A stretch of 64,000 nt of DNA from Hydrolagus colliei (taxonomy: Eukaryota), in contig CM068772.1 in the NCBI GenBank assembly GCA_035084275.1, positions 3,100,001-3,164,000 of the forward strand. The letters run 5' to 3'. Positions within the stretch are counted from its first letter, which is position 1. The number at the start of each line of letters is the position of its first letter. The translations under genes and the position numbers were made by a program. Positions 35,141-64,000 of the stretch are shown here, piece by piece. The notes beneath the pieces are model-generated. The model was not told where the DNA came from. It saw only the letters and a list, made by a program, of their open reading frames with translations, and did not search any database.

Positions 35141-35194
35141 TAAAGCATTATTTTCAACGTCTCACTGGGTTTTAATTGATATTTTACTTTGCAG

Positions 35195-36088
35195 GTGAAT
35201 GTGGGTCAGTCTCTGAACCTCCCTAAACTAGGAAACCTTCCCGACCCGTCGGCCCCTCCAGCAGAGACCTCCTTCTCCAGCCTGATACCTTCCCACCATC
35301 ACTCGGCCAGCCCCGGCCACCAGCCCCTGCAGCACAAGCTTCACGTGGTCGAGCCCGACAGCGCTTGCATGGACGCTCTGTACAACACAGTCCTGGACGC
35401 GGTGGGGAAAGTGACGAGCACAGCGCCTGGCAGCGTCTTCTACTCCAGGACAGTCCCAGCCTTCAGCACCGCCAGTGCCTTTACAGCCTCTGTGTCTGAC
35501 TCTGCCGTGGCGCCCAGCGGCGAGAGCGAGCTTGCGGCGGGGGGAGGAACCCTGCTGGCCCGGGGCCACGCAACGGAGCAGCCACCCAGCGACCCCCACC
35601 CCGTCAGGCTCTTCGCTGAGCGGGCCTGCGGCACCGAGCGGCTCGGCCGAGACCCTGGCTCCTCGCGCCACCATTTCGTGGAGCAGGCCGCCGCTAAAGA
35701 CACCGCCAGCAATACGTGTACGTGTCGCAGCCGTGCGCACTGTGAAATCTCAGGGCATCACCGTAGTGTGGAAACATCACCGGTCTCCCGCGGGGAGGCC
35801 GGGGCGGAGGGGGAGAGCCGGGGGGCGACGCAACGAGGCTCCGAGCAGCGGCAGAGACACGTACCGACGGACACCGGGCGCTGCAACGGGGAGGGCCGGG
35901 CGGAGAGCACACACACACGCTCCCTGGGCCCCAGCAAGGGAGAGCTGGCAGAGCACGGGGGGCGAAGGACGAATGACTCTAACAGCCCCGAGGAGGGTCC
36001 CGGGAAAGGATTCCCTCCCTGGGCGGACAAGCCAGCGGGGCTCGGTAGTGTGCAGCAATCCGGTCAGGAAAGGAGTGAGGAAGACAAG
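35195..36088 (+). CDS. MBD6: MBD5/6 coding exon 8, ending in a degenerate PWWP-like segment
   Basis: ttgcag|GTG...AAG|gtgggt, 894 nt. DALYNTVLDAVGK and PAFSTASAFTASVSD match MBD5 DAIYKAVVDAASK / PALSAMSAFTASIGD. Ends GKGFPPWADKP...QERSEEDK. Confidence 0.88.
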
Positions 36089-36105
36089 GTGGGTGTTACT
36101 GCGGT

Positions 36106-36445
36106 AATAACAACAACAACTTGGATTTGTATCGCGCTCTCGCCTGACTCCACGCCGAACGGCGTCTCAGAGCGGGATCCCGTGGCTGAGCTGGTGGGGG
36201 TTGGGGGGGGGGGGGGGGGGGGGAGAAGGCGACCGAAAGCACCGTCGAAAAGAAAGGTCTTTAGCCGAGACCTGAAAATAGGAAAGGAGGGGAGGGTAGC
36301 GGTAGTGAAGGGAGTGAGGGGGGGAATTCCAGAGCCTCGGGGGGTGGTGGCTGAAAGCACGGCCACCGATGGTGGAGCGGAGGGTTCGGAGGCCAGACCC
36401 GGTGGAGCGAAGGCAAAGGGTGGTGGTTGTAAGGGGAGAGGAGGT
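36106..36445 (-). mobile_element. 5'-truncated L2 LINE
   Basis: Reverse strand LRSTGSGLRTLRSTIGGRAFSHHPPRLWNS / FRSRLKTFLFDGAFG. (CAA)n tail at 36106-36120. Confidence 0.85.
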
Positions 36446-36743
36446 CAGAAAGGAACTATTATTATAATAATACTTGTGTTTGATATAAAGCCTCATATTG
36501 TCTACAGTGTCTCCACCAAACACAGGATAGCTGTACAGTATAAGATTCTCTCGGGTTACGTTATTGGAACAGAACCACACAAACATGACATACGCATCCT
36601 GCGGATGTCTCTGAAATCCAGCACCAGGGACTCAACGGCCAGAGTGTGGAGCACTCTAACCCAGAGGGCTTTGCTCCTCTTCCCCTTCCCTTGGCCCCCC
36701 ACCCAGAGACTCCTGGCTCATAACCCTGTACTTTCTCTGCCAG

Positions 36744-36817
36744 GTAATACCTGAGAACATGAAGACACTATTGGCAGGGCTCGAAGCGCCGCACAGAACC
36801 AGGAAAAGAAGTAAGAA
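36744..36817 (+). CDS. MBD6: MBD5/6 coding exon 9
   Basis: ccag|GTA...AAG AA|gtaagt, 74 nt. VIPENMKTLLAGLEAPHRTRKRSK versus MBD5 [24 protein letters not shown]. Confidence 0.88.
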
Positions 36818-42447: not shown

Positions 42448-42534
42448 TTATTTGGTGACGTTCTTCATTCGAGCCTCGATGCCGACAAAATTTCCCTCAA
42501 TCACCGCCAGGTTCTCCTTCATGGTGTTCTGAAC
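42448..42534 (-). CDS. DCTN2: DCTN2 (dynactin p50/dynamitin) last coding exon
   Basis: ctacag|GTT...TAA. VQNTMKENLAVIEGNFVGIEARMKNVTK* versus human [28 protein letters not shown]. Confidence 0.95.
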   Translation of the reverse strand, partial: VQNTMKENLAVIEGNFVGIEARMKNVTK

Positions 42535-42644
42535 CTGTAGCAGACATGGGAGGTGAGTTGACTGGAGAGGCGGGCGAGCGAGCGCACATAAAGTCACGAT
42601 AACTACACCTGCTGCTGACTCATCAGCACTACTCGATAATACTG

Positions 42645-42972
42645 TAATAATATCCTTGCATTTGATATAGTGCTATTCACGTCTTCTAGACGTCTCAAAG
42701 CGCTTCACAGAATATACTGTAAAGTGAATTGACTGTATATTTGTGGGCGAAACGCGACAGCCAATTACGCACAGCAGCATCCCCCACAAACAGCCGTGGA
42801 TTGAAAATGACCAATTTATTACAGGGTTTTTCGAGGGATTATTATCAGGCGTGTGTGTGTGTATGTGTGTGTGGAGCAAGGAAACTTGCTCAAGGTTTCG
42901 CCCTGACTGGAATCGAACCCAGATCTCCCGCATGCAAGGCGAGTGCTCTAACCACTGAGCTACAGGTCTCCT
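42645..42972 (-). mobile_element. Full-length young tRNA-Ala-derived SINE
   Basis: Reverse strand GGAGACCTGTAGCTCAGTGGTTAGAGCACTCGCCTTGCATGCGGGAGATCTGGGTTCGATTCC (A box, TGC anticodon loop, intact B box) through a tail ATCAAATGCAAGGATATTATT. Confidence 0.9.
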
Positions 42973-43339
42973 CCCAGAACTCAGCCAATATCACACACAA
43001 AACCCACTCCACTTTTACAGTATGTATTCCGTGAAGCACTGCGACACGATAAGGGGCTACATCAAGGTCTGCATTTCCGCAAATCCACGACTGAATTCAA
43101 TTGGAGCGTCACAGAATGGAGGAGAGGCTGGTCCAGTGATTACATTACATCCCGAGGCGCCTCTTCTGCAGGCCGAAATAGCAACGTTTTGTTGGTTGTA
43201 TCACACCTTCAGGCTCTCCCAATTTGTGACTACACTTAAAACAGGGGAACTGAACTGGGCAGTAGCCATCTCTGTGTGTGTGTGTGTCTGTGTCTGTGTG
43301 TCTGCGTGTGCGTGTGTGTCTGTGAAGTAAATACTGTAC

Positions 43340-43431
43340 CTGGCTTAACAAAGTTGTGTTTTCCTTCAGTGTGCCTGTGATGATCTGCTGAGTGGAATCC
43401 AGGTGAGTCAGCAGCTGACCAAATTGCATGG
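43340..43431 (-). CDS. DCTN2: DCTN2 coding exon (92 nt)
   Basis: tttcag|CC...CAG|gtacag. (A)[30 protein letters not shown]. Confidence 0.95.
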
Positions 43432-43833
43432 CTGAAACACAATCAGACACGTCAGGCCAGTTCACCAGCAGCTGAACCTCCACACACGCTGACATATATA
43501 TATACACACATATATATATCCCTCCCCAAGAATCTGTCCGTTCCCTCTGGGAAGAGCGAGAGGACTGTGTTCAGCACCCAGCAATTCCATGTTAAGATAA
43601 AAAATATATATATTTTTAATGGTTTAACCATTTAACACACATTGTGCAGTCTGGTTTGGTAAATATTTTCTGCTTTTCTAATCCCTAATCCTCCCTCTTC
43701 CCGCCACCCACCCACCCCACCCCCAGTCCTCTGCTCGGGTCAGATACAGTGACTGTCCAGTGCGTTGGGATGTCCTCCTGACGTGAAAGGCGCTGTCTAT
43801 ACAAGTGTAATTTTGTTGTTGCTGGAATCCTAC

Positions 43834-43936
43834 CTTGCTCATGGAGCTCCTTCACAGTAACTAGCCGCTGGACTACCTGTGGGAGGGTGGTAGCCATTGC
43901 GTCCCATTTCTGCACCAGCTCATACAGCTGAGCTAC
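43834..43936 (-). CDS. DCTN2: DCTN2 coding exon (103 nt)
   Basis: gcag|GTA...CAA G|gtagga. [34 protein letters not shown]. Confidence 0.95.
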
Positions 43937-44237
43937 CTGCAGGCAACAACAGGGAGGGAGGGAGGGAGTGAGTGACCGTGATCTGAGCACATCACAACAA
44001 CACGATGGAACAGGCTCCAGGGGCTGAATAGCCAAACTTCTGTCTCTATGTTCCACGATTGCCTGTCCAGGCGAATGTTAAACGATCTTACGACACCACA
44101 AGGAAACAGAAGTTTCAGCCATCCTCCAGATTAATCTATTATGATTTACGATCAACAAGCTCGGACACAAGATGTGATTAAAGCTAAACTAGATGGTGCA
44201 ACATTTCAGAATGCGCGGATAGAGACAATCGACTGAC

Positions 44238-44309
44238 CTTGCTCTGAGTCTCTGCGTCCTCGCTGGCTGTTTTGTGCTTGGCGATCTCGTTCAGCTTCCC
44301 CAAGACACT
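44238..44309 (-). CDS. DCTN2: DCTN2 coding exon (72 nt)
   Basis: ttaag|AGT...AAG|gtcagt. SVLGKLNEIAKHKTASEDAETQSK. Confidence 0.94.
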
Positions 44310-44760
44310 CTTAAGGGTAAAAGAATAAGAATCATTTCAGATGTGATCAAGAGAGGCATTGGACAGCTGCCACAGGGACCAGAGATGCAATATTTCTTCT
44401 TGGTTTTAAGATCAAGTGCATTGTCTAAGCATTTAAAATGGCGCAGAATGTTTAAAAACTCCCTCATTTTGAAGCCCAGTTTCCAACGGTAAAATAAATA
44501 TAATTATTTAACCAATTTTAATGCCGAATTTAGGAATTTCCCAAATGTGCCCCGCTGTCACTGTTCCCGAGTGGCCCGCAAGGCTCGGTCACTCATTCTC
44601 CCACAGCGTTTCTCAGCCACAGCCTCTATGGCTTCTCTCATTCAGATCCTGCTTCCCAGCAGATCAAGAGTTGGGTCAGACTGGAATATTAAACAGTAGT
44701 ATAAGTAGTTCATCTTCTTCTTCTTCGCCCTCTCATGTCGACACACACTGAGGAACTTAC

Positions 44761-44838
44761 TTGTAATCTTGCTTCAATCTGATCAAGTGTTGCTGAATCC
44801 AATGTGCTCACTTTAGCCTGAAGAATCTCAATGGTTCC
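44761..44838 (-). CDS. DCTN2: DCTN2 coding exon (78 nt)
   Basis: tgtag|GGA...CAA|gtaagt. GTIEILQAKVSTLDSATLDQIEARLQ. Confidence 0.94.
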
Positions 44839-45237
44839 CTACAGGGACAAGGGAAGAAGGAAAGAGAAGTTCAACATCTGACAGATTGAATTTTACAACC
44901 AGTCCCACCCTGACAGTTACGTTTGTCTCTATTGGAATATCACTAGTTTTTTCAGACATCTTCCTGATGTGATAGGCACTTGGTAAATGTAAATAACCCT
45001 TCCTCCAAGCTGATAATATTAATAATAATCCTTGCATTTGATATCGCGCTTTTCACGTTTAATCAATGTCTCAAAGCGCTTCACAGAATTTACTGTAAAG
45101 TGAATGGATTTGTATATTTGTGGGCGAAACGTGGCAGCCAATTGCGCACAGCAGCGTCCCGCAAAACCAGTCGTGGATTGAAATTATTTACAGAGCACCT
45201 TTCACGTCGGGTCTAGGATAAAGACGGAGATGCTTAC

Positions 45238-45276
45238 CATTAGACACGGGCCCTGCAATCCGACAGTAAGTGGGTT
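45238..45276 (-). CDS. DCTN2: DCTN2 coding exon (39 nt)
   Basis: tgtag|AAC...ATG|gtaagc. NPLTVGLQGPCLM versus human NPLSAGLQGACLM. Confidence 0.92.
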
Positions 45277-46594
45277 CTACAGGAAGGAAAAACAAAACAT
45301 AACAAGATAAATGTGATGATTAAAACAAGTAGCGAGATTCTGAAGCCCCTGAGAGCTAACCTGTGCCATTAGCAATGACAGCAATGACCAATTCATCATT
45401 CCTCACTGAAGGAAAAATAGATGTCATTATACCAGGCTAATAATAAGCCTTGTTCACCTTCCAACAAGCAATACAAACATTCGGCTGAGCCAACAGAAAA
45501 GGCAGCAAAAAAAAACTAAATTTGTAAATCCAAAATACAGTAAGATTCGCATGAGTATGATCTGTAATTGCTTAGGTGGTGAATCCACCCAAATCCTGTT
45601 CAAGAGTTTATATTCTATACAAATTTGACTTAACACAAGGCTTAGCATATGCCCTATTAAATGTATGGTCCCACGACTGATGTGACGTTTGCTGTGGATC
45701 AGTTATTTGCATCATCAAAGAGGTTTTCTCTGCCTCTTAAAACGGATGCACACTGGCTTCAGATCAATATATGGGATTACTTCCCTTACTGAGTTAATTC
45801 CTCGGAATTGTCAACCAGATTAAGCGTTACAGAGAGAGAGAGAGAGAGAGAGGGGGAGGGAGGGAAAGAAAAAGTACTGCTGCTGCCGCTGCTGTAATAA
45901 TCCCCGATTACAGGCCGTGTGAGCAGCGAGGGAAATTCTGGTACAGTGAAGATTCTGCGTTGCAACCATCCGCTGGTGATTGAAGAGCAAGGAAATTAAA
46001 CAGACTGTTGGTGGTGGGTGGAAGCCATTTAGAAATTGGTGGCTCGCAACTCAATAACGGCAACACTTGGCAATCATCGTTCCATTTAAGTCCAATCCTG
46101 GGATGGCCTGCCAGTGAGAGAGATCGGCAGTGAATCAGAAATGTAAATCTGGCACGTTGCATCTGGACTGTGAAAGCAGCCAATGGGTCCCGCCTGCTTT
46201 ATTCACGTACTGACTGGCTTCCGTGTGGAAGTATCGAAGTAAAGAAATATCCAAGTTTCCTGAATTAAGTAGTAGTAATAATGATAATAATAATAATCCT
46301 TGCCTTTGATAAGAGTGCCTTATCACACCTTCAAGACCCATTAAAGCACTTCACACGGTAGCCCAAAGCCCAATATCGCATGGGAACCTGCTGGTCCTTG
46401 CACCGTTTCAAGTGATGCTACTCACAATTTTTGCCCCGTCACAAAACATGAGGAACCAGTCAAGGTGATTGACTGAATGAAAGGGAAAACAAAGGCATTC
46501 TATTCCCAAGCAGGGGACATCAGGCGATTTGACAAGCATACAATAAATCTACACATTGGTTGACAAGAAACCAGGCTTGCGAGATTGTCTGTAC

Positions 46595-46660
46595 CTGTTT
46601 ATCAGAGGATGTGCCCACAGCGATCTCCAGCTCTGACAGCCGTTTCTCCAGCTCCGCCAC
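46595..46660 (-). CDS. DCTN2: DCTN2 coding exon (66 nt)
   Basis: tacag|GTG...CAG|gtacag. VAELEKRLSELEIAVGTSSDKQ. Confidence 0.94.
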
Positions 46661-47019
46661 CTGTAGGAAAACATTGACAAAATTGAGACTGAATTTAATA
46701 AAAAATGTAAGAATTTTTAAAATTATTTACACCCACTAATAAACCACCCCCCCAACCCGCACCCCGACCCCCACACGAGAGAAAAACATTGAATCAAATC
46801 TGCAACAATAAAAAACGTGCGATTTTCCATACACAGGTAAGTCCGGAGGGCAGCAGATTTTGTGACTGGGGTAGAAAGAGCTGTGTGTGCTGGGAGACGC
46901 TGCCAGTTTTACCCGGTAAACACTCTACCCATGAGGAACGCCTGTGGATATGACCTCAGCGGTTGCTCACTCGCACTCGTACGCCACTATAACACCCGCC
47001 TCCGTCACCTCATCCTTAC

Positions 47020-47167
47020 CTTTGATGCCTGAGTGAACTTGTACTGCTCCGGTCGGTAGTATAACTCATAAGTGATGGCATTTACATCAGATCCTTTACC
47101 GGAGCTTTTGTCCACCGTCGAGTGTCCCTTTCCACTCTTTGTGACGTCCAGTTGGGCAAGCAGTCGC
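47020..47167 (-). CDS. DCTN2: DCTN2 coding exon (148 nt)
   Basis: gcag|G...AAG|gtaagg. RLLAQLDVTKSGKGHSTVDKSSGKGSDVNAITYELYYRPEQYKFTQASK. Confidence 0.94.
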
Positions 47168-47589
47168 CTGCACACAGATCACAAAGAATAATTAGCGCGG
47201 ATGATGTACAATACCATTATGTTTTGCGACAGGATTCACATTTCAGATGTAATGTACTGTCACTCTAATACGTATTGTTTGGAGGCTAGACCGACTACCA
47301 CATTTGCTTTCATAACAACATTCTCCCACCATTCATTACACATTTCTTGTAGATGCATTTCCACCCTTATTTGTTCGAGTCATTAGTTTTGTGTCCCTGA
47401 CTGCGTCTGCCTTCAACGAGCTTGATGTTGCAGAAAAAATTCTCAAAATTGAGACTGAATTAAAAGTGTTCCAGAACCCCCGCACCAGCTCAAGACACAA
47501 AGGCAAACGGTGAGAGATTTTCAGCCCCTGACACTGCAGGCTGAGGGGAGAACGGTCAGGCTGTGATGCACAATGAACCTCATAGAGCA

Positions 47590-47797
47590 TGGTGCCGTTT
47601 GGAACTCCATCCTACAGTCCCTACACCTCACCTCACCCCACCCTCCCTTGCCTGCTTCAAGGCTTGTCTCGATACCTTTCTCTTCGACGTTGCCTCCAAC
47701 CCCCTACCACCCTCCCACCGATCCTGATCCCTGTCCAGCGCCTTGGGACGTCCTCCCAACGTGAAAGGCACCGTGTAAATTTAATTTGTTGCCGTTG
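47590..47797 (+). mobile_element. L2 LINE 3' fragment
   Basis: TGGAACTCCATCCTACAGTCCCTACACCTC...CAGCGCCTTGGGACGTCCTCCCAACGTGAAAGGCAC...TTTGTTG. Confidence 0.78.
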
Positions 47798-47808
47798 GCG
47801 TCCCTTAC

Positions 47809-47969
47809 TTGGCCAGGGCCCCCTCGGGATCGGTCAAGTCAATGGCCGCGTCCGGTCCCAGCACCTTCTCCAGCTGTAGTGTGACCAGGTGCTGCTTCAG
47901 GGTTGAGACTTGGTTGGCCAAAGCCACTGGGGTCAACTTCTCTTCAGCAGAAGAATCCTTCACTGTACT
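47809..47969 (-). CDS. DCTN2: DCTN2 coding exon (161 nt)
   Basis: cctag|AGT...GCC AA|gtaagg. [53 protein letters not shown](K). Confidence 0.95.
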
Positions 47970-49639
47970 CTAGGAGAGAAAGGCAAGGTCGTCAGTCAGC
48001 GAGTACTTTTTTGGTTTTTTTTAAAAACCTCCGGGGAAAGGAACATTCTCAAATTGATTAATATAAACGCAATATGATAGACCCTGTCTCTGCAATAGCC
48101 CTACACAGCAGAACTCAAAATCAACCCCGCTATCCTGGATCTGCCAGGTTTACAGTAAAAATCACCTACATCTTTTCCACCCGGACAAAATCTTCCAATC
48201 AGTTTGCGTGGACTCAGATTCTAAATGGTTCACTCCTACCTCTCACTGCACAATGAAGGGCGACATTTCCATTGTATTCTCTACACTACAGGGTATGTTC
48301 ACAAACTACTGTTTACCCATCACGTTTTTCCTTAAGATAATTTTATTTTCTGTTGCAGATGAGTTGTTATCAGTGGCATTAGTGAGTTCCACACATTTCA
48401 GTTGTCAGTCAGTGCATTGTAGGAAAGGAGATGACTGCGGTGGGGGAGGGGGGGGGGGCAGGGGGGAAGATGGGGGGCAGGTAAATAGGAGTTTGTGAAC
48501 AGACTGTACATGAGGTGCTACTCAAGAACCACCAAGCTCAATGAATATACCAAACCAGCGATGGAATGAGGGAAACACATTGTATACAAGTTCTCTGCGG
48601 CAGACCTCTGCCGCAGTTCTCTGCGGCAGACCACAGTTTAGAAAGGGATTCAAATCAACGTTTGAGAAAGGTGAGGAATATTACTGGGTCCCGGAAAACG
48701 CGATTAGCTGAAGCGATTCATGTGGAGAAAAACAGCGGCTTGTTCCTGCAGTCAACGGTTACAGTATCAATACCACAAGTGTGAAATAGTATTAAAATAA
48801 ATCTGTCAAGATGAAGCACTAATGCAGGCAAAACGGTGATATATTTTAGCAGTCCACAAACACGTACACAGAAATCTTGTTTGGTTTTTGTGCTGAAATT
48901 TTTCAATCAAGGTTTTCAAACCAGCCGTGAAATGCATTACCGCTGTCTCGGTTGGCTTATCAGCCCTCTCCACAGCTGGCTGGCTATCTGACAAAAGACA
49001 TGGACACCACGCGGGACTGTGGACACAAGCTCAGAATACTGATAGGAAGCACAATGCTGTAAAGGACGGGGCTTTCAATTCAAAGAACTCCTTCCCGTGC
49101 AATTTAAAATAATATGTTGTTGTTATGACAAGTAATATCTCCTGCGTTCCACTGTCAAGTTTATGTCCCCCACCTACAGCAGAGACTTGTGCAAACAGCA
49201 TCGCAATGGTGGCTCTCCGCAAGCTGGAGTCTATGATTAACTCTGGTAGGTGTGAAGCAGATTGCTCCCTGGGTTACTGCTTTGTGCAGCAGGATTTAAA
49301 GGCCTCGTTTCATATTGCTCTGTGCTTCTGCACATACACAACCCCACAAACGATTATCGTTGTTATTGTCGCACAAACCTCCTCCACGTACTGTCAGAGG
49401 CAAGGCTCCTATCAGAGACTTGCTGGGCTCACCTTCTTTATACAGCACATTTAGATGTGAACAAAGACATTAGTCAAGCCGGGGAGATTTATAACAAAAT
49501 AAAAACTGCTCCTCCCATGAATTCCTGCTCGCCTCTGTCAATTGATCTCAGAATGAATTATTCAGGCTTGTTGGTCGAGCACAGTCCCGTTTGCATCTTC
49601 TTGTCAATAAATGTAATGCATATTGCAATTTGTTAAATA

Positions 49640-50018
49640 AAGCCTTTAAAGCCCTCCATGGCCTTGCCCCATCCTACCACTGAAACCTGCTGGCCCCCTA
49701 CAAACCTACCCCCTCCCTCCACTCAGAGGGCTCCAGCCTGCTCCACGTCCCCCGACCCACCCAGGCCACCTTCGGCGGGCGAGCCTTCAGCCACTCTACC
49801 CACAACCTCTGACCATCCCGCAGTCCATGACTCGCCCCCCTCCCTGGCCTTCTTCAGGTCCCGCCTCAAGACCCGCTCTTTGACGGTCCCATCAGACACC
49901 CTTTCTGTCCACCCTCACTGATCCCGACCCTAGCTCGGCTCTGAAACACTGACTGTCCAGCGCCTTGGGACAGCCTCCCGACGTGAAACCCGCTAGACAA
50001 ATGTAACCGTGTTGTTGT
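49640..50018 (+). mobile_element. 5'-truncated L2 LINE
   Basis: FKALHGLAPSY...GGRAFSH...FRSRLKT remnants. Tail CAGCGCCTTGGGACAGCCTCCCGACGTGAAACC...GTTGTTG. Confidence 0.82.
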
Positions 50019-51379
50019 TAAATCCATCTTACTGACCAGCGCTGCACGGTTAGAAGTTTGGCACAGAGATTCCAGAAACAAAGATATTTGCCGAGCATAT
50101 GTCGGATGCATGAGGCGAAGACGCTCACACACTGGCTCCCGCCACAAACAACATCTGTGGAGTTTATCAGGCTTTGCCGACAAGACACTAAAATTAGACA
50201 AATAAACAGAAAATAAAGCGCCATCTGCTGCCAAACTGTGAGGTTCAAATAATTAATTAAAACCGAGAAAAATGGCCAACGAAGAAAGCAACAGCATATC
50301 AACGGGGAAACTGCAGCTATTTACTCATCTGCCATTTTACATCCCAGTCACTCTGCCCATACATAGAATTACTTTGCCGATGGCAATCATAGTTAGCGCG
50401 ATGCAGCGAGAGCAATTCAAGGGTGAAGGTTTATTACTTCAATTATAGCTCGGCCACAGAAAGTTATGTTGATGAATTGTCATTTTCAAATGGAGGTGGG
50501 GGGGGGGGAAGGGCGGAGAAAAGGGAAGAAAGCTAGTATCTGTCTGTCTGTCTAGAAGGATCCTGGAGGAGCTGCTATTTTAATCAGCCAGGCAGTCAGC
50601 TGTGAATTATGAGGCTTCACCGCCATGAACAGTTTTGTAAGATGATAGATTTGCTCTCCCTTCAGGAGCTGGATTCCAAGCATCCGGACAGTGGATGAGT
50701 GCTGGTGACTCATACAAGGAAAGGGGTCAGCAATCTAGTCAATCAATTTGGCCAAACGTTCTTTTCAACCGCGCTTTCGGTCACCTACTTCCCCGTCCCA
50801 CTGGCTTGGCCCCGGGATCCGTTATTGGGAAGCACTCTGGGACGCCGTCCTGCGTGGGGGGGGGGCTACATAAATCCAAGTTGTTGTGGTTGTTATTTAG
50901 AAGGGACATGAATAGGCCATTCAGGCCATCAAGTCTATTCCCCCAATTTATTACATCGTAGCAGATCTTTGAATCCATCTCCCCACTTTTCCAGTTTATA
51001 CCTTTACGTCTAAGGTAAATATCTCCCTTTAAATCATGCCAATAGATCCTGCTTGTATTCCTTCTGGGATAGTGCGGGCTGAAGAAATGCTTGGGGACCT
51101 CACTTCTAACTATGCGCGACAAGCCTCTATGCAAGTTGTTGTTGATGTAACTGGGCAAAAATCTTTTTAAGATTCCCAACAGTCAGCAATATTTCCAATC
51201 TCTGCTCTGGTTATGTTTAATATGCATTTTACCCACTGCTTCTCTTTCCCCCTCACATTTCTTCAAATCCATCTTTCATATTTCTGTTCATGGTTGAAAT
51301 AAATCGTATGAAGCACTAATGAAAAGAATGTGAGGAACGTCTCTCTCACCCTGGAGCCACTGTTAAGTTGGTTTTATAA

Positions 51380-51990
51380 ATAATTCTCCTCATCCCAGGA
51401 TAATAATAGGAAGGAAACTGTTTCCACTGGCAGGTAGTTCGATAACCGAGGGACATAGATTCAAAATAATTGGCAACAAAAACAGGAGAGTCGCGATTCT
51501 TTTTTTAACAAAACAAAAGTTGTTAAGATCAGGAATTCACTGCCTGAAAGGATGGTGGAAACAGATCCAATAACATAATTCAAAAGGCAATTGGATAGGT
51601 AATTGAAAAGGAAAAACTTTGCAAAGATATAGGAAAAGAGCGGAAGAGTGGGACTGATTAGGTGAGTCTTCCGAAATACAATGGGCCAAAATATCTCCTT
51701 CTGTGCTGTAATGTTCTATAATTCTAATCTTTCTCTCTCGTACCGCCTTCAGAGATTCCCCTGCCCACAGCCTGGGTCATGACAAAAGAACATTGCATGT
51801 GAAAACGCTATTTTTAAAATTATTTCAAAAGCAAATTAGATCATTTCTTTTAGGAAGTACATTCTTGGGAGTGCGGTATATAGTTTGGGACATGATATGG
51901 GCGTGCCACGGCGAGAATGGTGGAAGGTGAACTGGATGGACCTTGATCTTCTTTCATCCAGCAATTCTTAAGTTCTTACGTTCCTGTTCT
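51380..51990 (+). mobile_element. Two CR1-type LINE 3' end fragments
   Basis: KLFPLAGSSITEGHRFKIIG and NSLPERMVETD-like remnants ending TTCTATAATTCTA (~51725). A second family end ...GGATGGACCTTGATCTTCTTTCATCCAGCAATTCTTAAGTTCTTACGTTC (~51985). Confidence 0.72.
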
Positions 51991-52625
51991 GGGAAACTTC
52001 GTCGTGAGAACCAACATGAGAGTAAGACTTCTAAACCACTTCCCCAGGTTTGGCATAAAAGATTGTAGCTTAAGCTGCTGTTAGCAGAAACTTAAGTTTG
52101 TAAGATTCCTGAATGTCTTAAGTCAGGAACGCTGGCTGATGTGGGAGAAATGAGCAACATATATTTAGACTACAAGACCTGCTGTTGATCCACAAACCAT
52201 CATTTCTATGATCCACTCTGCTGAATAGATTACAGCACTGTGGCGCGCGTTCGTCAGTGCCTGCAAGTCCCCAGACACACTGGTCCTAATGGTTGGTGAC
52301 ACGCACACATTCCTAGGTCAGAGACTTGACGGAATTTCACCTAAATAAAACATTAGCCAATGGCAAAGAGGATATTCCAGGAGGCTGGGACAGATGAAAA
52401 ATCCAGGACTGATATGAAGAACCCAACCACAAGCCCTTTATAAAAAATAATTGATTCCAGTGTAGATATTAGCAGTCACCATGCATCTCAGGTATCAGCA
52501 CTTAGTAAGTTACAACAAGCAGCTCACATCATTCAACTCTGTCCAGAAAAATGTCTAGTCAATACTTTAACCCTAACCCTACCCCAATACTTGGTTTGCT
52601 ATGGATATGGAAGAAAGATGTTCAC

Positions 52626-53070
52626 TAAGAACATAAGAAGAGGTCCTAACCTCAGTGGTTAGAGCACTCGCCTTGCAAGCGAGAGACCTGGGTTCAATTC
52701 CAGGCAGGACGAAACCTTCAGCAAGTTTCCTTACTCCACACACCTGACTGTTCAACGCCTTGGGACTTCATCTCGACGTGAGAGGCGCTCTACAAATCTA
52801 ATTTTGTTGTTGTGGTTGTTGAAAAGCGTGATATCAAACGGAAGGATTATTATTATTATTAAGGTCAGCTGGACAAAAGAAGACCAAGGTTCATCCAGTA
52901 CACATTCCATCCTAGCAATCCCGTGCACACGTCACGTCCCAAACTATATATTGTATCCCACATCATTATTTCCTGATAGAAATCTATCTAATTTGCGTTT
53001 GAAAGCATTTTCTGCTTCCACCGTCTGTCTCCTTAGGGAGCCTGTTCCTTACATTGGCTGCATTTTGGTG
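52626..53070. mobile_element. Nested insertion: CR1 3' end (minus) split by a SINE (plus) that contains an L2 tail
   Basis: TAAGAACATAAGAA | tRNA-Ala head 52640-52743 | L2 tail to (GTT)n at ~52820 | SINE tail to (ATT)n at 52860 | GCTGGACAAAAGAAGACCAAGGTTCATCCAGT (CR1 resumes). Confidence 0.7.
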
Positions 53071-54049
53071 AATAGGGAAGGAACACTGAGGACAGAAGAT
53101 ATTTAAACAGCTACTTTCAAACAGAAAGTAGGTTTTTCTTTTTTTTAAAATCTATCTGAAGAAGCTCTTACAATCTTACCAGGAAATAAATGGAATCATT
53201 TTCACTCACTCCAAAACACCATAACTCAAACTGCATTTATATCACTCAAAATTTAGAAAAACACTCACATGCTGTCTCAATCGTGATAAATCACCATCCC
53301 CGAGGATCCATACACCACATAAAAAACGTCCAACCTCTCAGTCTGTCATAATTCAAAAATAACAACAGTTTCTGCATTCTCTACATAATTCATTAAAATG
53401 TCCAGTATTCCAAGTGGGTACCTCTCTCGCACAAAAATATCTCTCGCTGCAAATGTCAAATGGCAGATCCATAAGTAAAGTTGACGGCTGCTTTTACCAG
53501 TGATATTTATCATTTCTGACTCAAGTCATTGGAGAAGAAGCAAACGAGCTCCGGCCAAACCAGTTGTAAAACGGGAAAAGTGCATTGGCTTGACTTGATA
53601 TTTCCCAATGTTTATATTTCCCCCCCTCACCCCCCCCCCCCCCCCCCCCACCAGCCAATCAATTCCAATCTATATAAATGACCGATTACATAAATAGATT
53701 TATTTCTCCGCCACACTCCGTCATTTAAATAATGATACCTCATTATGATACTGTTTCGAATCACAGAAATTTACATAACAGAAGGTGGCTATTCAGCCCA
53801 TCACATCTGTGTTCAAAGTGTAATCCATTTAATCGCACTCACTTTCTTTTCCTTCCTCCCTTCCCTCACCCCTTTATGTTGTTCCTTTTCAATTATTTAA
53901 TTCCCTTTTTAAAGCCAATATTGATTATTTCCAACTAAGGTTTTGGTTGTGCAAACTCTCCCATGTCACAGAAATACTCTCCTCACCTCTCCTTTGTTTT
54001 CTTGTTTAATGATCTTAAATTGATGTCATAACAATCCTGTACCATTTCA

Positions 54050-54352
54050 CATTGTTGAGATGTCTCAAAGCGCTTCACAGAAAATATTGTAAAGTGGAAT
54101 GACTGGATTTTGTGGACGAAACGGTGCGGCCAATTGCACACAGTGGTGTCCCACAAACACTCGTGGATTGAGTGACCAATTTGTTTTTCAAAGTTGGTAG
54201 GAATTATTAACTATTAAGGAAAGCGATCCACCAATCACCAAAAAAAACTCATTTCTACTTACTGCTAGGTAAACAAAAAGTATGTGGAGTAACGTTTTGC
54301 CCTGTCTGGGAATCGAACCTGGGTCCTCTCGCTCATTATGATACAGGACTCC
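54050..54352 (-). mobile_element. tRNA-derived SINE
   Basis: Reverse strand GGAGTCCTGTA...CCAGGTTCGATTCCCAG head, and a TGTGCAATTGGCCGCACCGTTTCGTCCACAAAAT...TCTGTGAAGCGCTTTGAGAC body and tail. Confidence 0.75.
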
Positions 54353-54417
54353 GTGATATCCTCTAGTTACTCACCCACTGACCATTATTTTCAGCTACGA
54401 TTCCATACATGTCTCAC

Positions 54418-54516
54418 CTTAATTTGCTCCACCTCTTCAGACAGTTCTTGCATTTCATGCAGCAGTCGCTGGTATTTCTGCTGTGGGCTCTCCTTTACGC
54501 CACTTCCCTCTCCCAG
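54418..54516 (-). CDS. DCTN2: DCTN2 coding exon (99 nt)
   Basis: tgtag|CTG...AAG|gtgaga. [33 protein letters not shown]. Confidence 0.95.
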
Positions 54517-55497
54517 CTACAGAGGAACAAAGCAACGGGAACAATTGATTAATTCAGTTTTACTATCAGAAGACAGAGGCCTTTTGAGCCTGAAAGAAGA
54601 GTTCATTGGAAACAAATTCCTAGCACAAATGCTTAACTGTGCTAAGGATCATGAGCAGAGAGTCATATAGCATTTAAACTGTTTCCAATGTTTGAACACA
54701 GTATTTTTAACGTCCTGAAAGGGACCAACCTTGTGCCTAACGGAGATTGCACTTCCAGCTGTTAAACTGGTACAAGAAGATCAAGTAAATCGAACTCCCA
54801 ACTTCTCTTTAGGGTATTGGTGCATGGAGTAGATCGACACTATAATTGATGCAAGACAGAACAAGAGAGATTCCAAAACGACAGGATCCCCTACTTGTCA
54901 GCTCCTTTGGACGTGAAAGGCGCTGTACAAATGCAATTTGTTATTGTTGTGTAAGCTTCACTGATGGCTGACGAAAGAGGGCCAGTGAATAGAAACAGAG
55001 AATCCTACAGTACAGAAGGAAGCTGGTTCTTTAATGCTGTAGAAAAGGAAATTGTCAATAATACCCCCCTCCCTACCTCATTTTCCTAATACTGTACGCC
55101 AGTATTTTTTCCCAGTGATTAGGTGGAGTGGGTGTGAATGTTATTGCCTTGCTATGTGGGACTCACAAGAGGAACTTGGGTTGGTTTGTTCTTTCCTTTG
55201 GGTAAGTGCAACACTAAAGACTCACGCAAGATCAGTCAACTCTCAATCAAGGAATCAGACACAAAACACACACCATGTGTGTTCTTCTCTGTCAGATATT
55301 TAAAGAAATGCTTAAAAAAGAGCTCATATCTATTCCCTCTAGCCTTTCTTTTATTGCTGTCAATATTTCACTTTGCAGTTTGTACTTGAAACTCGGTCTG
55401 AACACAACTCGAGAAGCTCCAGAGATCAGTAAGTCTATGTGCAAATAAAAAAAATCAAGACATCAACATTGGCAATGCTTGATCATTTCATATTTAC

Positions 55498-55559
55498 CAT
55501 CTCGTAATCTCCAGTTTCATAGCCAGTTCTTCTCGATTTGCTGATCCGATCTGAAAAGT
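55498..55559 (-). CDS. DCTN2: DCTN2 coding exon (62 nt)
   Basis: tgcag|AC...ATG|gtaaat. (D)FSDRISKSRRTGYETGDYEM. Confidence 0.95.
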
Positions 55560-55963
55560 CTGCAGCATAGCACACATTAATAATCAATAAGCAGCTTTTT
55601 CAGAAAATGATTTAACTAAAAATGAGCAATACCATGTTGTATATGCTCATAATACAGACGTCTACAGTACTATTTACTGTATACACAAGCGCTGCTATAT
55701 GCAAACTACCCACGTGACGGGCACTATATAAATACAAGCTGTGCTTATCGTATTGGTTGCTTGTATGCTCGGAGAAAGGCTTAAGTACAACAACAACAAC
55801 AAATTACATTTATAGAGCGCCTTTCACGTCGGGAGGACGTCCCAAGGCGCTGCAGAAGCAGACAAATACTAGGGAAATGCATCTAGTACAGTGTAGGAGA
55901 ACTAGTCAATATTCCAAGGGAACAGTGAAACATGGAAAAGAAATATATCTGTTGGGTTCTTAC

Positions 55964-56060
55964 CAATGTCTTTGGTGCTAACTCGTTTGTCTTTAAATTT
56001 GTCATAAGAAGCATTTGGATTGACCACAATGCGCTCCACGCTCTCGCTGTTCAGCTCCTC
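55964..56060 (-). CDS. DCTN2: DCTN2 coding exon (97 nt); the first constitutive exons lie beyond the right edge
   Basis: tgcag|GAG...ATT G|gtaaga. [32 protein letters not shown] versus human [32 protein letters not shown]. Confidence 0.95.
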
Positions 56061-59000
56061 CTGCATATAAGCAAATCATTAGGGTTCAGCTGACAAGCAA
56101 ACCAACACAAAGGATTACACACAGAATGAAGAAGTAATCAAAGCAATGGGGTTGCAAAAGGAAAAATCCCAAAGCACAACACAATGCAGGAAGTGGGATT
56201 CATTCTGTAATTCAATGCTTGCTGGAGTGCTTATAATTCGTATCAAGCGCATGCAAATTTTTAATATGTATGTGTACAATTTTTTTTAAAAAGGGTACGC
56301 TAACAAGCATAGTAACATGAGTTTAGCTGGTTTGATTCTTGCAAGTCACAAGACTCCAAACTAACACTGAGCATAGCCACGTGCGATCATAATATCACCA
56401 GCACCTACCATGGGTCCACACTATGTAACTACCACTCTGCAATCTAATGGTGTATCGCTACCTCACATACAATGATTGACTACGTATTGAAATATATAAT
56501 AATGTATTCCTAACATCCTCAAAACAATACGACTGATTTCTAGGCATCTGACAGGTTGCCAGAAGGATAGCTGAGGTCAGGACACTAGAATCATTTTTTT
56601 TTAAATGCTTGATGCTGTAACCGTAGGAAAATAGGATAAGTATTCAGGAAGGGTGAGATCAGATGGGCTGAAGGGCGTTCTTCATCCAAACTAATCTGGT
56701 GATTTGGATCGACAATTAAAATTACAACTCAGGACCATCCCAGAAATAAAGGGAGTTTAAAACTTTTTTAAAAACAAACATTGCACTACATATGTTTCTT
56801 ATAAAACAAATCTTTTAGTGTAATGCTTGACATTTGGAAAATATTGTACTGCAAATTGTTCTCATGATCTAGTCGGGCTTCAGCCTGACCACTTTGGCTG
56901 TTGAGCAGCTTTGTCATTTTGCTCATGGGTCTTGAGCTTTGGAAATCTGCCATAATACAAAACATTAAACATCAGACTCCCTGTTATGTTCCCACTAATT
57001 GCTCATTTTCAACATGTTCAATCTTAAATAAAATTCAAGCTCTACACTTCAAAGTTGTTTTTAAAAAGTGTGCTCAGTGTAAGTATCTGTCTGAACGTGG
57101 ATCTAAGATCCACATCATTCTCGGAATCATTAAAAGCAATCATCAGACCTTCAATCAATCATTAATTAATGTCATCATTACATAAGGCATTTCAAGCAGT
57201 TTCTTTTACATGAAAGGCGGGCACTATATAAATAGAAGTTGTTGTTCAATGGCTTTCCGGCAATTGGAACACTTTCTAAACCCCTTCTTCTCCTGAATAA
57301 AGATGGATTTCTTTTTTAAAAAATTGGACTTAATTTGGTTGATGCAGAAACCGCAAACTAATTTTTTGGGAACAATGTAATTGGAGAGCTGCTTGCTCCA
57401 GCAATACAGATGGGACTAAGCAAATCTTATAAGTACTGTACAGTAATTCATCTGAAATTGCACTCAGCTCCTACAGTTACGTAATGCAGACCAACCAGAT
57501 TATCTCCTCAGAATCAACCTTTGATTGTTAACACTCCACGCATCATTGGGAACATGCAAACCAGCCGAATTAAAGGCAATTTCTGATCTCTGATTGCATT
57601 GATGTTCAAGTCTTTATCACACTAAATCAATCCCCTATCCATCAGACAATCAGCATTAACAACTCACATTTGAGCCATTGCCCTGCAATTTAACCTGTTT
57701 ACTTTCCTCCCTTCCAGGAGGGGTCTTGGTTACTACCCCGTCCTCTGATCTGCTCCCTACTGAAGACTGTGTTAGAACCTCATTGAAAAGGTACAGAAAA
57801 TTTCTTTCAAATGTTATATGACAAAAGATAACTCATGATAATTATTTGATGGTCCCAAAGGTTTGAGTTCGCATAAAATTTCAAACAACAAGACTGTTGT
57901 AATTATATAGCACTTGTATAATAATGCTTGCATTTGATATAGCTCACGTCTTCTAGACAACTCAAAGCATTTCACAGAATATACTGTGAAGTAATTGACT
58001 GTATATTTGTGGGCGAAACGCAGCAGCGCACAGCAGTGCCCCACATACGGTCGTGAATTGTGTGACCAAATTATTCGGGGTTTTTTTAGGAATTATTATT
58101 AATTATTATTATATCATTTTATGATATAATACATATTCTGACACTACATATTCTATCCCACAATAGATGTTGTGTGACTCATCAAGCAAGCTATGGCAAT
58201 TTTTCTATTAATGTAGTAGCAAAAATCTAATGTATTAGTATTGATATTTGTTCTTCAATATATAATGGTTGATTTTAACTCAAATATACAGTTGTGCCAC
58301 AATGGTTAATTTATTAATATGAATGATCGGCTCCACAAAAACTCTTCACCCTCTGATGACACTCAACAGGGTGGAGGGAATAACATTGAAGATGTAATTA
58401 AGCTCATTTCATGGTTGCCAAATGAAATTAATTTATAGGGAATTAAATTACTTGGAAGTGACAAGGCCATTTAGTAGATAGTAAGGAACAATTTAAGTCC
58501 ATGCTCATTTAACCTCTTGACAAGATTAAAAGACAGAATATTACAAATAATAATATGATATGGAATTTTTTTAAAAAATCTTTATAAGCCCAGAGAAACC
58601 TAAAACAATTAATTTTGACCAGACTATAAATAAAAGGTGTAGCACACAAAACATTTCCCCTCTCAATTTGACTTTATTGAATCTTACTCAGACTTTGTTG
58701 TTGTAAAAATAAATGCTCTTACCAAAAGAATCAAATCAATAGCTTTTAGGAAATAAAATCCTAAATTAGCAGAAAAACATAAAGGTAAATGTGACTAGAT
58801 TTCCAATCTCTGATTCTTCGATCAGAGGAAATTGGCATGACATACTGTCAATTTTCCACAAGTCTTCGACCCTTATAGGAGAACATGCTACAGATCTTTG
58901 TAAGAGATAAACAAATTGCTAAGATTTATCCAACTCCCAGTTAAGATGCAATCAATGCAAGTGAGAACAATTTTGAATTTTGTTTAACATTCACAGATCC

Positions 59001-59084
59001 TCAAGCTATTGTAGCCCTGAAAGGGTTGAAAGACTTGACATTGTAGCACAAAGATTAGAAGTGTTCAAAGGTCAGGCTTCTTAC

Positions 59085-59090
59085 CAGCTC
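59085..59090 (-). CDS. DCTN2: DCTN2 6-nt microexon (Glu-Leu)
   Basis: Minus strand: ~80-nt pyrimidine tract ...ttcttccttctttggaattgcaag|GAGCTG|gtaaga. Matches the EL insert of human DCTN2 isoforms (…AEFDA-EL-EELT…). Confidence 0.85.
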
Positions 59091-60264
59091 CTTGCAATTC
59101 CAAAGAAGGAAGAATTAGAAGTGAAAAAAGTGGGAGGAGGAAAGGGGAGTGGGAGTGGGAGAGGGAAAAGAGACACAGTGAGAAATTAATAAGATGTTAC
59201 ACAAAGCACAACATAACATTATTAGTGCTCATACAACATTCAAAGCTTCACAGAACAGTTCCCATAATAAGTGCATTGTTGTTCAGTTCATACCAGGTCC
59301 CATTCTTACGCATTATTAAAAAAAAACTTTCAATTCTGATCACAGAATTCAACCATTTCATTGATTGGAGGCAAAGGGAAGAAAACATAATAATGTGGAC
59401 TCAATAAATCAGAAAATCGCTGAGATTCTATTAATATATTAATTTAAAGTGTTCCCGGTTACACTTGTTTGAATGATTTAATAATGACATTAGAATTGTT
59501 GAATAAATAATAAATCAAACTGTAAGATTTCCATGAACCTATACAGTGGTTTGAACAGGATTGTATTAAGAGCTGGATGAGGACATGCAATAAAAAGCAA
59601 TGGGGTGATGATATGAAGTAGCTCAGCTGAGGAAGGGAAAACAAATAACAACAACAAAATTACATTTATAATGGGAGCAAGGACAGATAGGTAACATGAA
59701 GTGGTAGGTATTGAGTTCACAGTTCTAATCTAAGCCCAGGCTAACATAAGGAGGTGACAAAAGGAGGTCAGACACCTTCATAAGGAAGGAAAAAATTACC
59801 GTACGTTTAGGCAATCTAATCACTCTCAGCATACTTCAAGCTGCTGGTGATAAGAAAATAGTACTGGCAGAAGTCAGAGCAAGTCAACTACCCAGTCTAA
59901 CAGCCAAAAATAATGTATGGAGGCTTGGAGGGAATAGAATAACTCCATATGAAGCAGGCGTTTCAGAGAATGGAAGAGCAGATTCCCATTTATGCACTTT
60001 GAGACATCGATAAGACGGAAAGCGCTATATAAATGTAAGGATTATTATTATTATTATTATTTATAATGTTATGCTTCACAGAGCATCCATTTCCTTAAGA
60101 TCCTGATGCATTACAGAATAGCTTTCTGGGATGATGCACCTCATTTGTTCATCCTGACAGTTTTAACATTCACACACTGAAAATCAACCAAGTAGAAAAA
60201 TTACCGCGTAATGTTTAGATGGGTCCTGAGCAAAGGTAGATGAATTTAATGTTCTAACATCCTG

Positions 60265-60510
60265 CACCATAGAATTATACAGCACAGAAGGAGGCCATTC
60301 AGTCCACCGTGCCTGTGCCAGCTCTTGAAACAGCTGTCCAAATTAATCCCGCTCCCCCACTCTCTTCCCATAGCCTTACAAATTTGTCCTCCCCAAATAT
60401 CTGTCCATTTCTATCTTGAAAGTTAGCGAATCTGCTTCTATCGTATTTTCAAGCAGAGCATTCCAGGCCAAATAACTCACTGAGAGAAAAATAATTCTCA
60501 TCCCCCCTGC
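60265..60510 (-). mobile_element. CR1-type LINE 3' fragment
   Basis: CATAGAATTATACAGCACAGAAGGAGGCCATTCAGTCCACCGTGCCTGTGCCAGCTCTT is the reverse of a CR1 3' end similar to 51660-51725. Confidence 0.7.
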
Positions 60511-62224
60511 TCTGTGTTTTTTTTGCAATCAGAGATGGCAGCATTCTCGTTTTTAAACAGTGGATCACACATCATGCAACTTTCACATGGATTTCAGGAA
60601 TATATTTTAGTGTTTAAAAAAAACGAAAACAATCTTGAACCAAGAAAGGTGAAGGCTCAAGCGAACTCAACTGGGGTTAACTCAAATCTTCAACACATCA
60701 TGCCTTGAAATTCACATTCTAAAGAGTTTATACCTCCAATGAGATGCATCCCAAATAATTTCAAAACTAATTACTACTCTTGAACCTTTAAAATAAAGCA
60801 CAAAAGTGAACAATATGCCTCCCCACCCCATTCATAACTTATGCAAAATGCATACAACACTGGTGTAATGCTCACCCACATGGACAATAGTACTTTTGAA
60901 CTCTTCTTCCCAGCAATCAGGGAGAATACTTCTAAGAATTCAGGTTATTAATGTGCCTATTGCTGTTTCATATACTGTAATATATAATAATAATAGCATT
61001 AGATATAGCACCCCTTATCACATCTTTGAGATGTCTCAAAGCACATCATGGAATCTACTGTAAGTGATGATCCATTACAGATGCATGCTTTTAATGAATC
61101 AATATTGTAAGGCACCAGGTTTTATCATTATGTTCAGAGGCAGAAGGTAAGCGGCATTCTGGTTGGAAATTTAAGCTTTCACGTCCTTATTCCAAATCAA
61201 TTTGATATTGAAGATACAGCTCTCTGGCAATAATATTGAATAATTGAAACACAATACTGGATCCTTCTGACTGATTTCACTGTGCAAGGAAATTGCACAG
61301 TGATTATTGTCTCCTGGCAATGTGACTATAGCTCGATGGATGTGGGGTGGGGAGGGGGGTGAAATGAATGTGCAAGGCACAGAGTTACAACATACACCAT
61401 GTAAAAACAGGAGATTCTGAACAGGTAGGTTCAGAAAGTTGAGCCATACCCAAAACACTAGCAAAAAAAACAGGATTTCAATCAACAAAATTTATTCAGA
61501 ATCAAATATTTTCTATGACAAATAGTTTACAGCACAATCCCTCTAGAATTAAATTTTCAGAAATCACTTGACTTCACCCCAGCCCAGTCTGTTATGTGAC
61601 TCAGCTCCAGTTCTTTTTCCCAAAAGAAGTAAACAGATAATGGGATTTATAAAGCAAGACACAAAAACATGAAAGTTAACCTGTTTGTAAAGTAAATTAC
61701 AATAAATTTAACATATTATTATTAAAATATTAATCTTTAGGACTTGGATCTCACCTGGAGAGATTGTGCAGTACACTTTGAACTTTTTTAACCCTCTAAA
61801 TATAGGAATTCAACATAATCAAATACAACTCGTAAGCTTTTTACCCAGATTACTACAAAACATACACTATTGCAATTTTATATATTTGTGGATATGGCAA
61901 ATATGTGACTTAACATTGGATATAATGACATGAATGACAGTAGATAAATCACCTGCAATATCTAATCCAATGCTCACGCCTCAAGAAATCAAAACTATTC
62001 ATTTAAACGAATAGTAATGCTTGATTATAATTAAAGAAAACTGATAGAATTTTAAAGCTAACATTAACTAAATTAATCAGAGGAAACGACTTTTTAATAT
62101 GAATCACTGACAGCCAATGCAGTCAACTGCACATTATAAATGTGGTAGTCCATGTCACAATTTAACCATGTGAAGATTGGAATGGACATTCATCAGATCA
62201 GGCTCATGTTATTCTTATATTTCC

Positions 62225-62612
62225 AATGTTGGTCGCCTATGAATTCCAACCCTGGTTTTGAGCACCTGCTACCAACTGCACCCACTAAACTGTTCTAGTT
62301 CAGTACAGTGTGGGTAAGGTGCAGGATAAAGCTTCCTTTAAATTGCATCTAACAAAGTGCTTTATCCCACCGTCTGCATTTCCATTTGCCACAAGTACCA
62401 TCACTGTAGCTGCTTGGTGCAAAATTGCTCTCAGATCAGTGAAAAATTAAGCTTTGTGCTGTGGTGGACTCACAATCACCAGTAACCAGGAAGCTCACTG
62501 CACCTTCCAGCCAGCAGCAGGAGAAAACTGGCATCCTATCTGTCTGAGCTCGTGGAGCTCAAGCCTCAGACATTAAAGGACAGGATTCTAAACCAGTGAT
62601 ACCACCCAGTCC
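62225..62612 (-). mobile_element. Old SINE-like element with possible LF-SINE affinity
   Basis: Reverse strand starts GGACTGGGTGGTATCACTGGTTTAG...CCTTTAATGTCTGAGG and contains GGAAGCTTTATCCTGCACCTTACCCACACTGTAC. Resemblance from memory only. Confidence 0.35.
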
Positions 62613-62710
62613 TTGTACCTCAGTTGGAATCCCAGAGCTCAGATGCACTGAAGTGATGCTAATGATTCACACTTTTCTATATGGCAATGCAGCACAGCAA
62701 AGTGGAATTG

Positions 62711-62738
62711 CATGCAGAATACATAACAAAAGCATGCA
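62711..62738 (-). promoter_or_regulatory. Two RBFOX-type UGCAUG intronic motifs downstream of the 9-nt microexon
   Basis: CATGCA on plus at 62711-62716 and 62733-62738 = TGCATG on the transcribed strand, at +49 and +27 nt from the microexon donor. Confidence 0.65.
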
Positions 62739-62764
62739 AAATAGTAGCATTTGAAAACTCTTAC

Positions 62765-62773
62765 TTGCGCAAA
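62765..62773 (-). CDS. DCTN2: DCTN2 9-nt microexon (Phe-Ala-Gln)
   Basis: Minus strand ...ctttcccctttgacttcgttgcctggacactag|TTTGCGCAA|gtaaga. With the 6-nt microexon it rebuilds FAQ-EL-EEL, the insert of the longest human DCTN2 isoform. Confidence 0.87.
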
Positions 62774-64000
62774 CTAGTGTCCAGGCAACGAAGTCAAAGG
62801 GGAAAGCATTTTAGGAAAATTGTGGTAAGTCCAGTGCACAAAATGAAATATATCAGCCTCTATCCTGCATCTCTGAGGCGCTCTAGCGAATGGACTAAGG
62901 AGGATGCCAACTTGATTTGTTTTTAAAAAAAACACCTTTAATGTTGATTTTATTTTTTAAATAAAATTTCTTCCAAGCCATACATTATGATTTGTGAGTT
63001 CATCTTTAAAAATCACACTCAAGTTTACAGAACTGGAACCTTGGTTCCTACTCGCCTTTTTTGTATAAAAAGGTGTGCATTACTGAATGCTATAGACAAT
63101 ATTTCATACAATAGCCAAAATATCTGTTTCAACACCATTGGTTCCAGTTAAACCTAGCAATATTCATGGCGCAGTTTAGCAGAATAGCCATTTATCAAAT
63201 GTATATATAGAATGTACAAGGACTTTTTAATGGTTTAAAATAGAAAACAAACAAGCAAACTTATCATGGTCACTATCCTGCAGTGATCATACAACTCTGG
63301 ATAAGTTCTCCACCATTGCACCCAAAGAATGAGCCAGATGGATATCTTGCTAACTGTAAACATTAATCACAAAGCTTAGAAAGGAAACCTGTACTAAACA
63401 GAAATCAGTTTCCCCAATTCCCTCCTCACTGTGGAAGGCTGCCCACCCTTTCTACCCTAGGAAACTTGTGGACTTGCATTTCGTAAATAGAAATGCAATC
63501 AGTAATTTAAAAAACTGAAATCTACAGACATTTAACAACTACCTACACAAAGGGAATAGTAGTGTGCTTTACTTGACTCTATAGAAGTTGACTCTGTAGA
63601 AGTTATTTTCACACAGGCAGTTATATTGGAGACATTCTCTCTCTCTTAATAAAAATATGTATTAATCATGGTGTCTAGATTATCTTTCCTGTATGTTTTT
63701 TGTGATATATACCTCTGTTGCTATCCTTTCTTGAAGTGTTCTTGTGTCATTCACACTGCCCAGCTGGGTGTACCCAATTTCAATCTGTTCTCATATTCTC
63801 ATTAATGTCACTCTATAACCAGCGACTCAGAAGTGCCTAGGTTATACTTTCTGGAAAGGTATGTGGTAACGATGACAAACCTGAGACTGTAAAACCCACT
63901 GTAGGTAAATATGTGACAAGCTCATTCTGTTACCATTCGTAGGGCTGTATAACACTATATATGAAGACCATTTTCCCTTTTACTGTCTGCGATCCTCCTG

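Follow-up and report, generated by a model that had tools for sequence, protein, structure and literature searches.

Two very short alternative exons of DCTN2, the gene for the dynactin subunit p50 (dynamitin), were described by Hammesfahr and Kollmar (2012; PMC3583065), namely exon 3 encoding the peptide 'FAQ' and exon 4 encoding the peptide 'EL', both of which are reported there to occur from lamprey to human and to be absent from invertebrates. The same FAQ and EL exons have also been used as a test case for the prediction of short exons (PMC3162530). For mouse, the microexon catalogue of Parada et al. (2021; PMC7821500) lists a 6-nt Dctn2 exon with the sequence GAGCTG and a coverage of 5272, compared with 108 for a 3-nt CTG form, as well as a 9-nt exon with a coverage of 59 that belongs to the neuronal cluster N6. 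According to the same source, inclusion of the mouse 6-nt exon climbs in the brain from E10.5-12.5 with support by qRT-PCR, and the exon is assigned to the neuromuscular cluster NM2; its row flags skeletal muscle, heart and adrenal as differential without giving a direction, and the exon's own loading on PC2 (muscle) is slightly negative. The coordinates of neither mouse exon appear in the mouse-zebrafish table of that study, and its zebrafish table contains no GAGCTG. Neural microexons in general have been characterized by a strong donor, a weak acceptor, a distal pyrimidine tract and, in about three quarters of cases, a UGC (bioRxiv 10.1101/2024.09.17.613571; PMC12871342).

The sequence analysed here, referred to as the window, comprises 64,000 nt of contig CM068772.1 of the chimaera Hydrolagus colliei (assembly GCA_035084275.1, positions 3,100,001 to 3,164,000), and all coordinates are given relative to the window unless stated differently. 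DCTN2 is located on the minus strand. By tblastn with isoform X1 of Callorhinchus milii (P0004) as query, a constitutive exon of 97 nt beginning with EELNS was placed at 55964..56060 and the other coding exons found in the window at 42451..55559, while the same query located exons 1 and 2 in L002, the stretch next to the window. Callorhinchus proteins match the EELNS exon at 100% identity, and the junction of this exon to the next one was found in all four mapped sequencing runs. Exon 2 lies outside the window (G000:C39:3166997-3166929); its last codon is complete, and GTAAGC comes next. When the genome was searched with P0087, 11 matches were obtained, all of them at this locus, which is thus the single DCTN2 locus of the genome.

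The 6-nt cassette microexon GAGCTG (Glu-Leu, hereafter EL) is located on the minus strand at 59085..59090, in DCTN2 intron 2, which separates the exon that ends with residue 35 from the EELxS exon, and corresponds to DCTN2 exon 4. It is bounded by an AAG acceptor at 59093-59091, preceded directly by a TGC at 59096-59094 (-6 to -4; the two elements together span 59091..59096), and by a GTAAGA 5′ splice site at 59079..59084; a distal polypyrimidine tract, in which 74 of 83 bases are C or T, extends over 59103..59185. All of these elements had been named in the original prediction and were recovered as described on the minus strand, and the distance to the EELNS exon, put there at about 3 kb, was measured as 3,024 nt. 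The predicted phase 0-0 holds as well, because exon 2 stops on a whole codon before GTAAGC, and inclusion of the six bases keeps the frame.

EL thus combines very short length, frame preservation, AG/GT boundaries, a strong donor, a weak acceptor context and a UGC between tract and AG, donor and acceptor strength being judged from sequence context. Its acceptor is the only AAG among the 13 DCTN2 acceptors tabulated, the AG-free zone upstream of it measures 135 nt, and the pyrimidine fraction at -90 to -13 amounts to 0.88 versus 0.47-0.68 at the 12 other acceptors. Between -105 and -13 there are four UCUU and two CUCU words, which we take to be motifs of the PTBP1 type, and candidate branch-point words are located at -99 and -28. 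No stable RNA fold was predicted for the acceptor region (z 0.66), and the hexamer TGCATG is absent within 150 nt upstream and 300 nt downstream of EL. The tandem acceptor AAG/GAG at 59093-59085 (minus strand), the second of which lies within the EL exon, permits a 3-nt alternative form CTG (Leu) at 59085..59087. This 3-nt alternative acceptor is possible in mouse and chimaera alike, the CTG form being the minor one in mouse, and a lone L insert at the DCTN2 junction is present in the trout protein P0144.

A partner microexon of 9 nt, TTTGCGCAA (Phe-Ala-Gln, hereafter FAQ), which was absent from the original prediction, is located 3.7 kb upstream of EL at 62765..62773 on the minus strand and corresponds to DCTN2 exon 3; its peptide is found as part of the FAQEL insert of C. 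milii X1. FAQ has a TAG acceptor, a UGC at -14 and a GTAAGA donor, and it is followed by two TGCATG hexamers at +27 and +49, of nine that occur in 21,601 nt of the DCTN2 sense strand. The hexamer is presumably an RBFOX-type motif, and its paired occurrence suggests that FAQ may be enhanced by RBFOX, separately from the control of EL. Both FAQ and EL are present a single time and in the published order, and the FAQ exon should be annotated together with EL. As other vertebrates splice exons 3 and 4 independently of each other (PMC3583065), four isoforms would be expected.

When compared with the exons described in PMC3583065, the pair in the window agrees in gene, insertion point after residue 35, order, lengths and peptides and differs in species; Callorhinchus is not mentioned in the text of that paper. 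EL is identical to the mouse 6-nt exon in 6/6 bases, and FAQ differs from the mouse 9-nt exon (VastDB MmuEX0013953) in 1/9 bases, the difference being synonymous. The intron containing both microexons is about 10.9 kb long in the chimaera versus about 7.2 kb in mouse, and the tissue pattern and inclusion values cited above are those of the mouse, whereas the chimaera exon is known from its sequence. In RefSeq, the three C. milii DCTN2 isoforms carry FAQEL (X1, XP_007907518.1), EL (X2, XP_007907519.1) and no insert (X3), and the Carcharodon isoform X1 carries EL; the DCTN2 of the window and that of C. milii RefSeq are not identical, and one block of exon sequence, for example, matches at 80%. 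The identification of the hexamer as the DCTN2 EL microexon is therefore supported, on account of the identical mouse hexamer and the EL isoforms of C. milii, and its proposed conservation across jawed vertebrates falls within a published range that is wider still and includes the lamprey (PMC3583065).

For a wider survey 150 DCTN2 proteins were fetched, of which 137 were readable at the junction and 13 were not. Among the readable proteins, 95 have no insert, 15 have EL alone, 2 have FAQEL, 3 FVQEL, 2 CVQEL, 7 FVQ and 4 CVQ, and 9 have other inserts. Forms with EL come from chimaera, shark, Logan proteins close to skate, gar, tarpon, herring, catfish and salmonids. Both exons are called invariant in PMC3583065, but here FAQ is replaced by FVQ in several ray-finned fishes and by CVQ in salmonids (proteins P0015-P0027, P0074, P0079 and P0113). 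Deposited dynactin models likewise differ at the p50 insert site, which reads EL, LQ or nothing: one 405-aa sequence with EL is used in 14 PDB entries, a 401-aa sequence without insert in 2 entries, and entries 7z8m and 6f38 have LQ. The intron end at 56075-56061 (minus strand) reads in frame as FAYMQ, and tblastn draws the FAQEL residues onto this end. The database inserts VQ, VS and LQ, including those of two PDB sequences, may have arisen from similar read-through into the intron by gene predictors. The expectation that EL would be missed by ORF-based annotation was borne out for protein-to-genome tblastn, which misplaces FAQEL, but not for RefSeq, where EL isoforms are listed for C. milii and Carcharodon. 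EL is an already known exon, as it was published (in print since 2011-2012), mapped in mouse and annotated among the RefSeq isoforms of C. milii.

In order to assess how readily such a feature arises by chance, 500 dinucleotide shuffles of 56061-64000, the part of the DCTN2 intron within the window, were analysed. In the observed sequence the most pyrimidine-rich 80 nt reached a fraction of 0.89, above the maximum of 0.79 among the 500 shuffles, and the strict pattern AG-GAGCTR-GTRAG was found in only one of 500, while the F[AV]Q microexon pattern was found in 6 of 500. With a loose pattern, in which EL may be encoded by any of its codons as long as AG precedes and GT follows, 51 of another 500 shuffles gave a match, so that the EL hexamer by itself is weak evidence, and equally or more pyrimidine-rich tracts occur at three other sites of the window, all of them C-rich and of low complexity, so that the tract by itself is not unique either. 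It is the features taken together, and their placement in the DCTN2 intron, that count as evidence. The explanation that GAGCTG came to stand between AG and GT, next to a low-complexity tract, by chance, as the loose pattern and the other tracts of the window might allow, is hardly credible in view of the strict pattern, of a tract exceeding those of all shuffles and of FAQ and EL each occurring once in the published order; this explanation is effectively refuted because the mouse exon is identical and the FAQ-EL pair is ordered.

Four of six sequencing runs, none of which is recorded as RNA, were mapped to 46500-63000 at 80% likeness. Four constitutive DCTN2 junctions were found in 4/4 mapped runs. 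Repeats filled the tables of this mapping, and among the entries listed, next to which there are a further 5909 loose-end and 1527 joint entries, neither an EL junction nor a loose end at 56060 was found. The mapping therefore speaks neither for nor against the EL junction; the mapped stretch does not extend to exon 2, and a 6-nt exon is unmappable by itself. Because the mapping did not display the junction, inclusion of EL in the chimaera is predicted from orthology. Contigs of a related organism were additionally compared with the window, and among the matches listed, mismatches amount to 48 of 656 bases in the stretch spanning EL and 108 of 1285 in that spanning FAQ, versus 196 of 1701 for five pieces of distal intron, a set from which pieces containing an exon were left out and in which only long listed pieces were compared (Fisher p versus the distal pieces: EL 0.002, FAQ 0.006). 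As the pieces were selected by the tool and a piece 400-850 nt away from FAQ, with 36 differences in 448 bases, is conserved to the same degree, conservation of the flanks gives modest support only. The undisplayed junction would also fit an ancestral EL that persists in the chimaera as an unspliced relic. We regard such a relic as very improbable, given that both splice sites are intact, that the hexamer equals the mouse exon, that EL isoforms are annotated in the close relative C. milii and that the EL flank is somewhat more conserved than the distal intron. Taken as a whole, the evidence makes it nearly certain that EL is a real exon.

EL shares with the SRRM3/4 (eMIC) microexon programme its frame preservation, weak acceptor, distal tract, UGC and strong donor, and a putative control of EL by SRRM3/4 is plausible by analogy, against which stands the classification of the mouse orthologue as neuromuscular. 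The genome encodes an SRRM_C (eMIC) exon at G000:C28:6448655-6448783 (Pfam PF15230 over the cut-off, E 6.9e-12). This was the only such match in the genome search, and an RS-rich exon follows it in the same stretch (L006). In the literature, no work was found that shows SRRM dependence of DCTN2, although unsearched supplements may hold such data: neither the Bonnal nor the Randazza preprint (bioRxiv 10.1101/2024.09.17.613571 and PMC12871342) mentions DCTN2 in its main text, although the Bonnal supplements with orthologous flanks from 47 jawed vertebrates may list it, and no DCTN2 entry was found in five supplement files of PMC4317164; nothing relevant was found in the portions of PMC13262244 and bioRxiv 10.1101/2022.01.31.478155 that were covered.

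On balance we lean towards the reading that EL is DCTN2 exon 4 and that SRRM3/4 would contribute to its inclusion alongside relief from PTBP1. EL would likely be skipped in most cells, probably as a consequence of its tiny size, its weak AAG acceptor and a set-back tract that may be open to PTBP1, and it would likely be included in neurons and possibly in muscle, where inclusion would probably need a fall of PTBP1 together with SRRM3/4 acting via the UGC, aided by the strong donor, by analogy with described neural microexons. A competing explanation, which we consider less probable though it deserves weight, also takes the exon as real but attributes its inclusion mainly to PTBP1 relief or to muscle and neuron factors (RBFOX, MBNL, QKI), the UGC being incidental. 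The UCUU and CUCU words upstream of EL would suit this SRRM-independent route, and so would the neuromuscular cluster of the mouse exon and its muscle and heart flags, given that SRRM3/4 are described as mainly neural and endocrine; the adrenal flag, in contrast, fits endocrine SRRM3. A UGC is found within 20 nt of 7/11 constitutive DCTN2 acceptors (6/11 without counting TGCAG), so that this motif is non-discriminating in DCTN2, and according to bioRxiv 10.1101/2024.09.17.613571 it is not strictly needed in mutagenesis and is lacking in about a quarter of SRRM-dependent exons. Against the SRRM-independent route stands the conjunction of distal tract, weak acceptor, UGC and strong donor, which matches the SRRM3/4 pattern, and for RBFOX in particular the lack of a TGCATG near EL.

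With EL included, p50 would gain Glu-Leu behind its residue 35. Residues 1-87 of p50 have been described as disordered and as binding Arp1 directly (PMC4091830), and cryo-EM models show the four N-termini of p50 emerging from the shoulder at residue 100, of which two are taut and two slack (PMC8047447). The inserted residues would thus belong to the arm at the p50 N-terminus (residues 1-100), which is disordered and binds the Arp1 filament, and for this reason a small change of arm length or affinity, with no new function, is the likely effect. An AlphaFold2 model of the C. milii EL isoform, obtained with a 35-sequence alignment, has pLDDT values below 50 over residues 29-97. A helix of four residues at 34-37 in this model lies within the low-confidence range and was discounted as evidence.

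A more far-reaching proposal, which we put forward as a speculation unlikely to hold, is that the FAQ/EL pair has been kept since before the lampreys as a splice-encoded length switch in the 'ruler' arm of p50, giving rise to tissue-specific dynactins. If true, the arm would be lengthened by 2, 3 or 5 residues, and attachment of the shoulder or activation of the motor could differ; the added residues could alter dynactin because two of the four p50 arms are taut on the Arp1 filament (PMC8047447). Two separate controls would then be involved, with a UGC and a long tract for a neuromuscular EL and paired RBFOX sites for a neuronal FAQ. A new DCTN2 splicing event, located between exons 2 and 3, has been reported in TARDBP-mutant motor neurons (PMC12361731), and it might be the FAQ/EL switch. 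Most microexon deletions in zebrafish had minimal or no larval phenotypes (PMC12626420), dctn2 not being mentioned in the passages covered. As of 2012, residues 36-40 of p50 were without biochemical study (PMC3583065), and the literature searches found no later test of them; the chimaera locus gives no easier test of these residues than mouse or zebrafish. The window adds one holocephalan to an exon known across vertebrates, and the observation matters little in itself because EL has been described across vertebrates and is annotated in C. milii.

The surroundings of DCTN2 were also inspected. A GC-rich region at 29811-36751 contains several long Ser/Pro-rich open frames of 181-524 aa on the plus strand, facing the 3′ end of DCTN2, and gave no Pfam match. 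MBD6 was considered as a candidate for the plus-strand neighbour on the assumption that it lies next to DCTN2 in human; this assignment was unsupported, as a Pfam search of five ORFs of the window gave no match in 5/5 and the two MBD matches obtained are both outside the window. An ORF of the sulfite oxidase type with Cyt-b5, molybdopterin and dimerisation domains (L003:1233-3536, plus strand) lies on the strand opposite to DCTN2, about 7 kb upstream of its first exon. Finally, the DCTN2 introns contain high-copy interspersed repeats at about 52650-52750, 54047-54105, 55801-55852 and 57940-58027, which draw thousands of reads and appear to be SINE-like.
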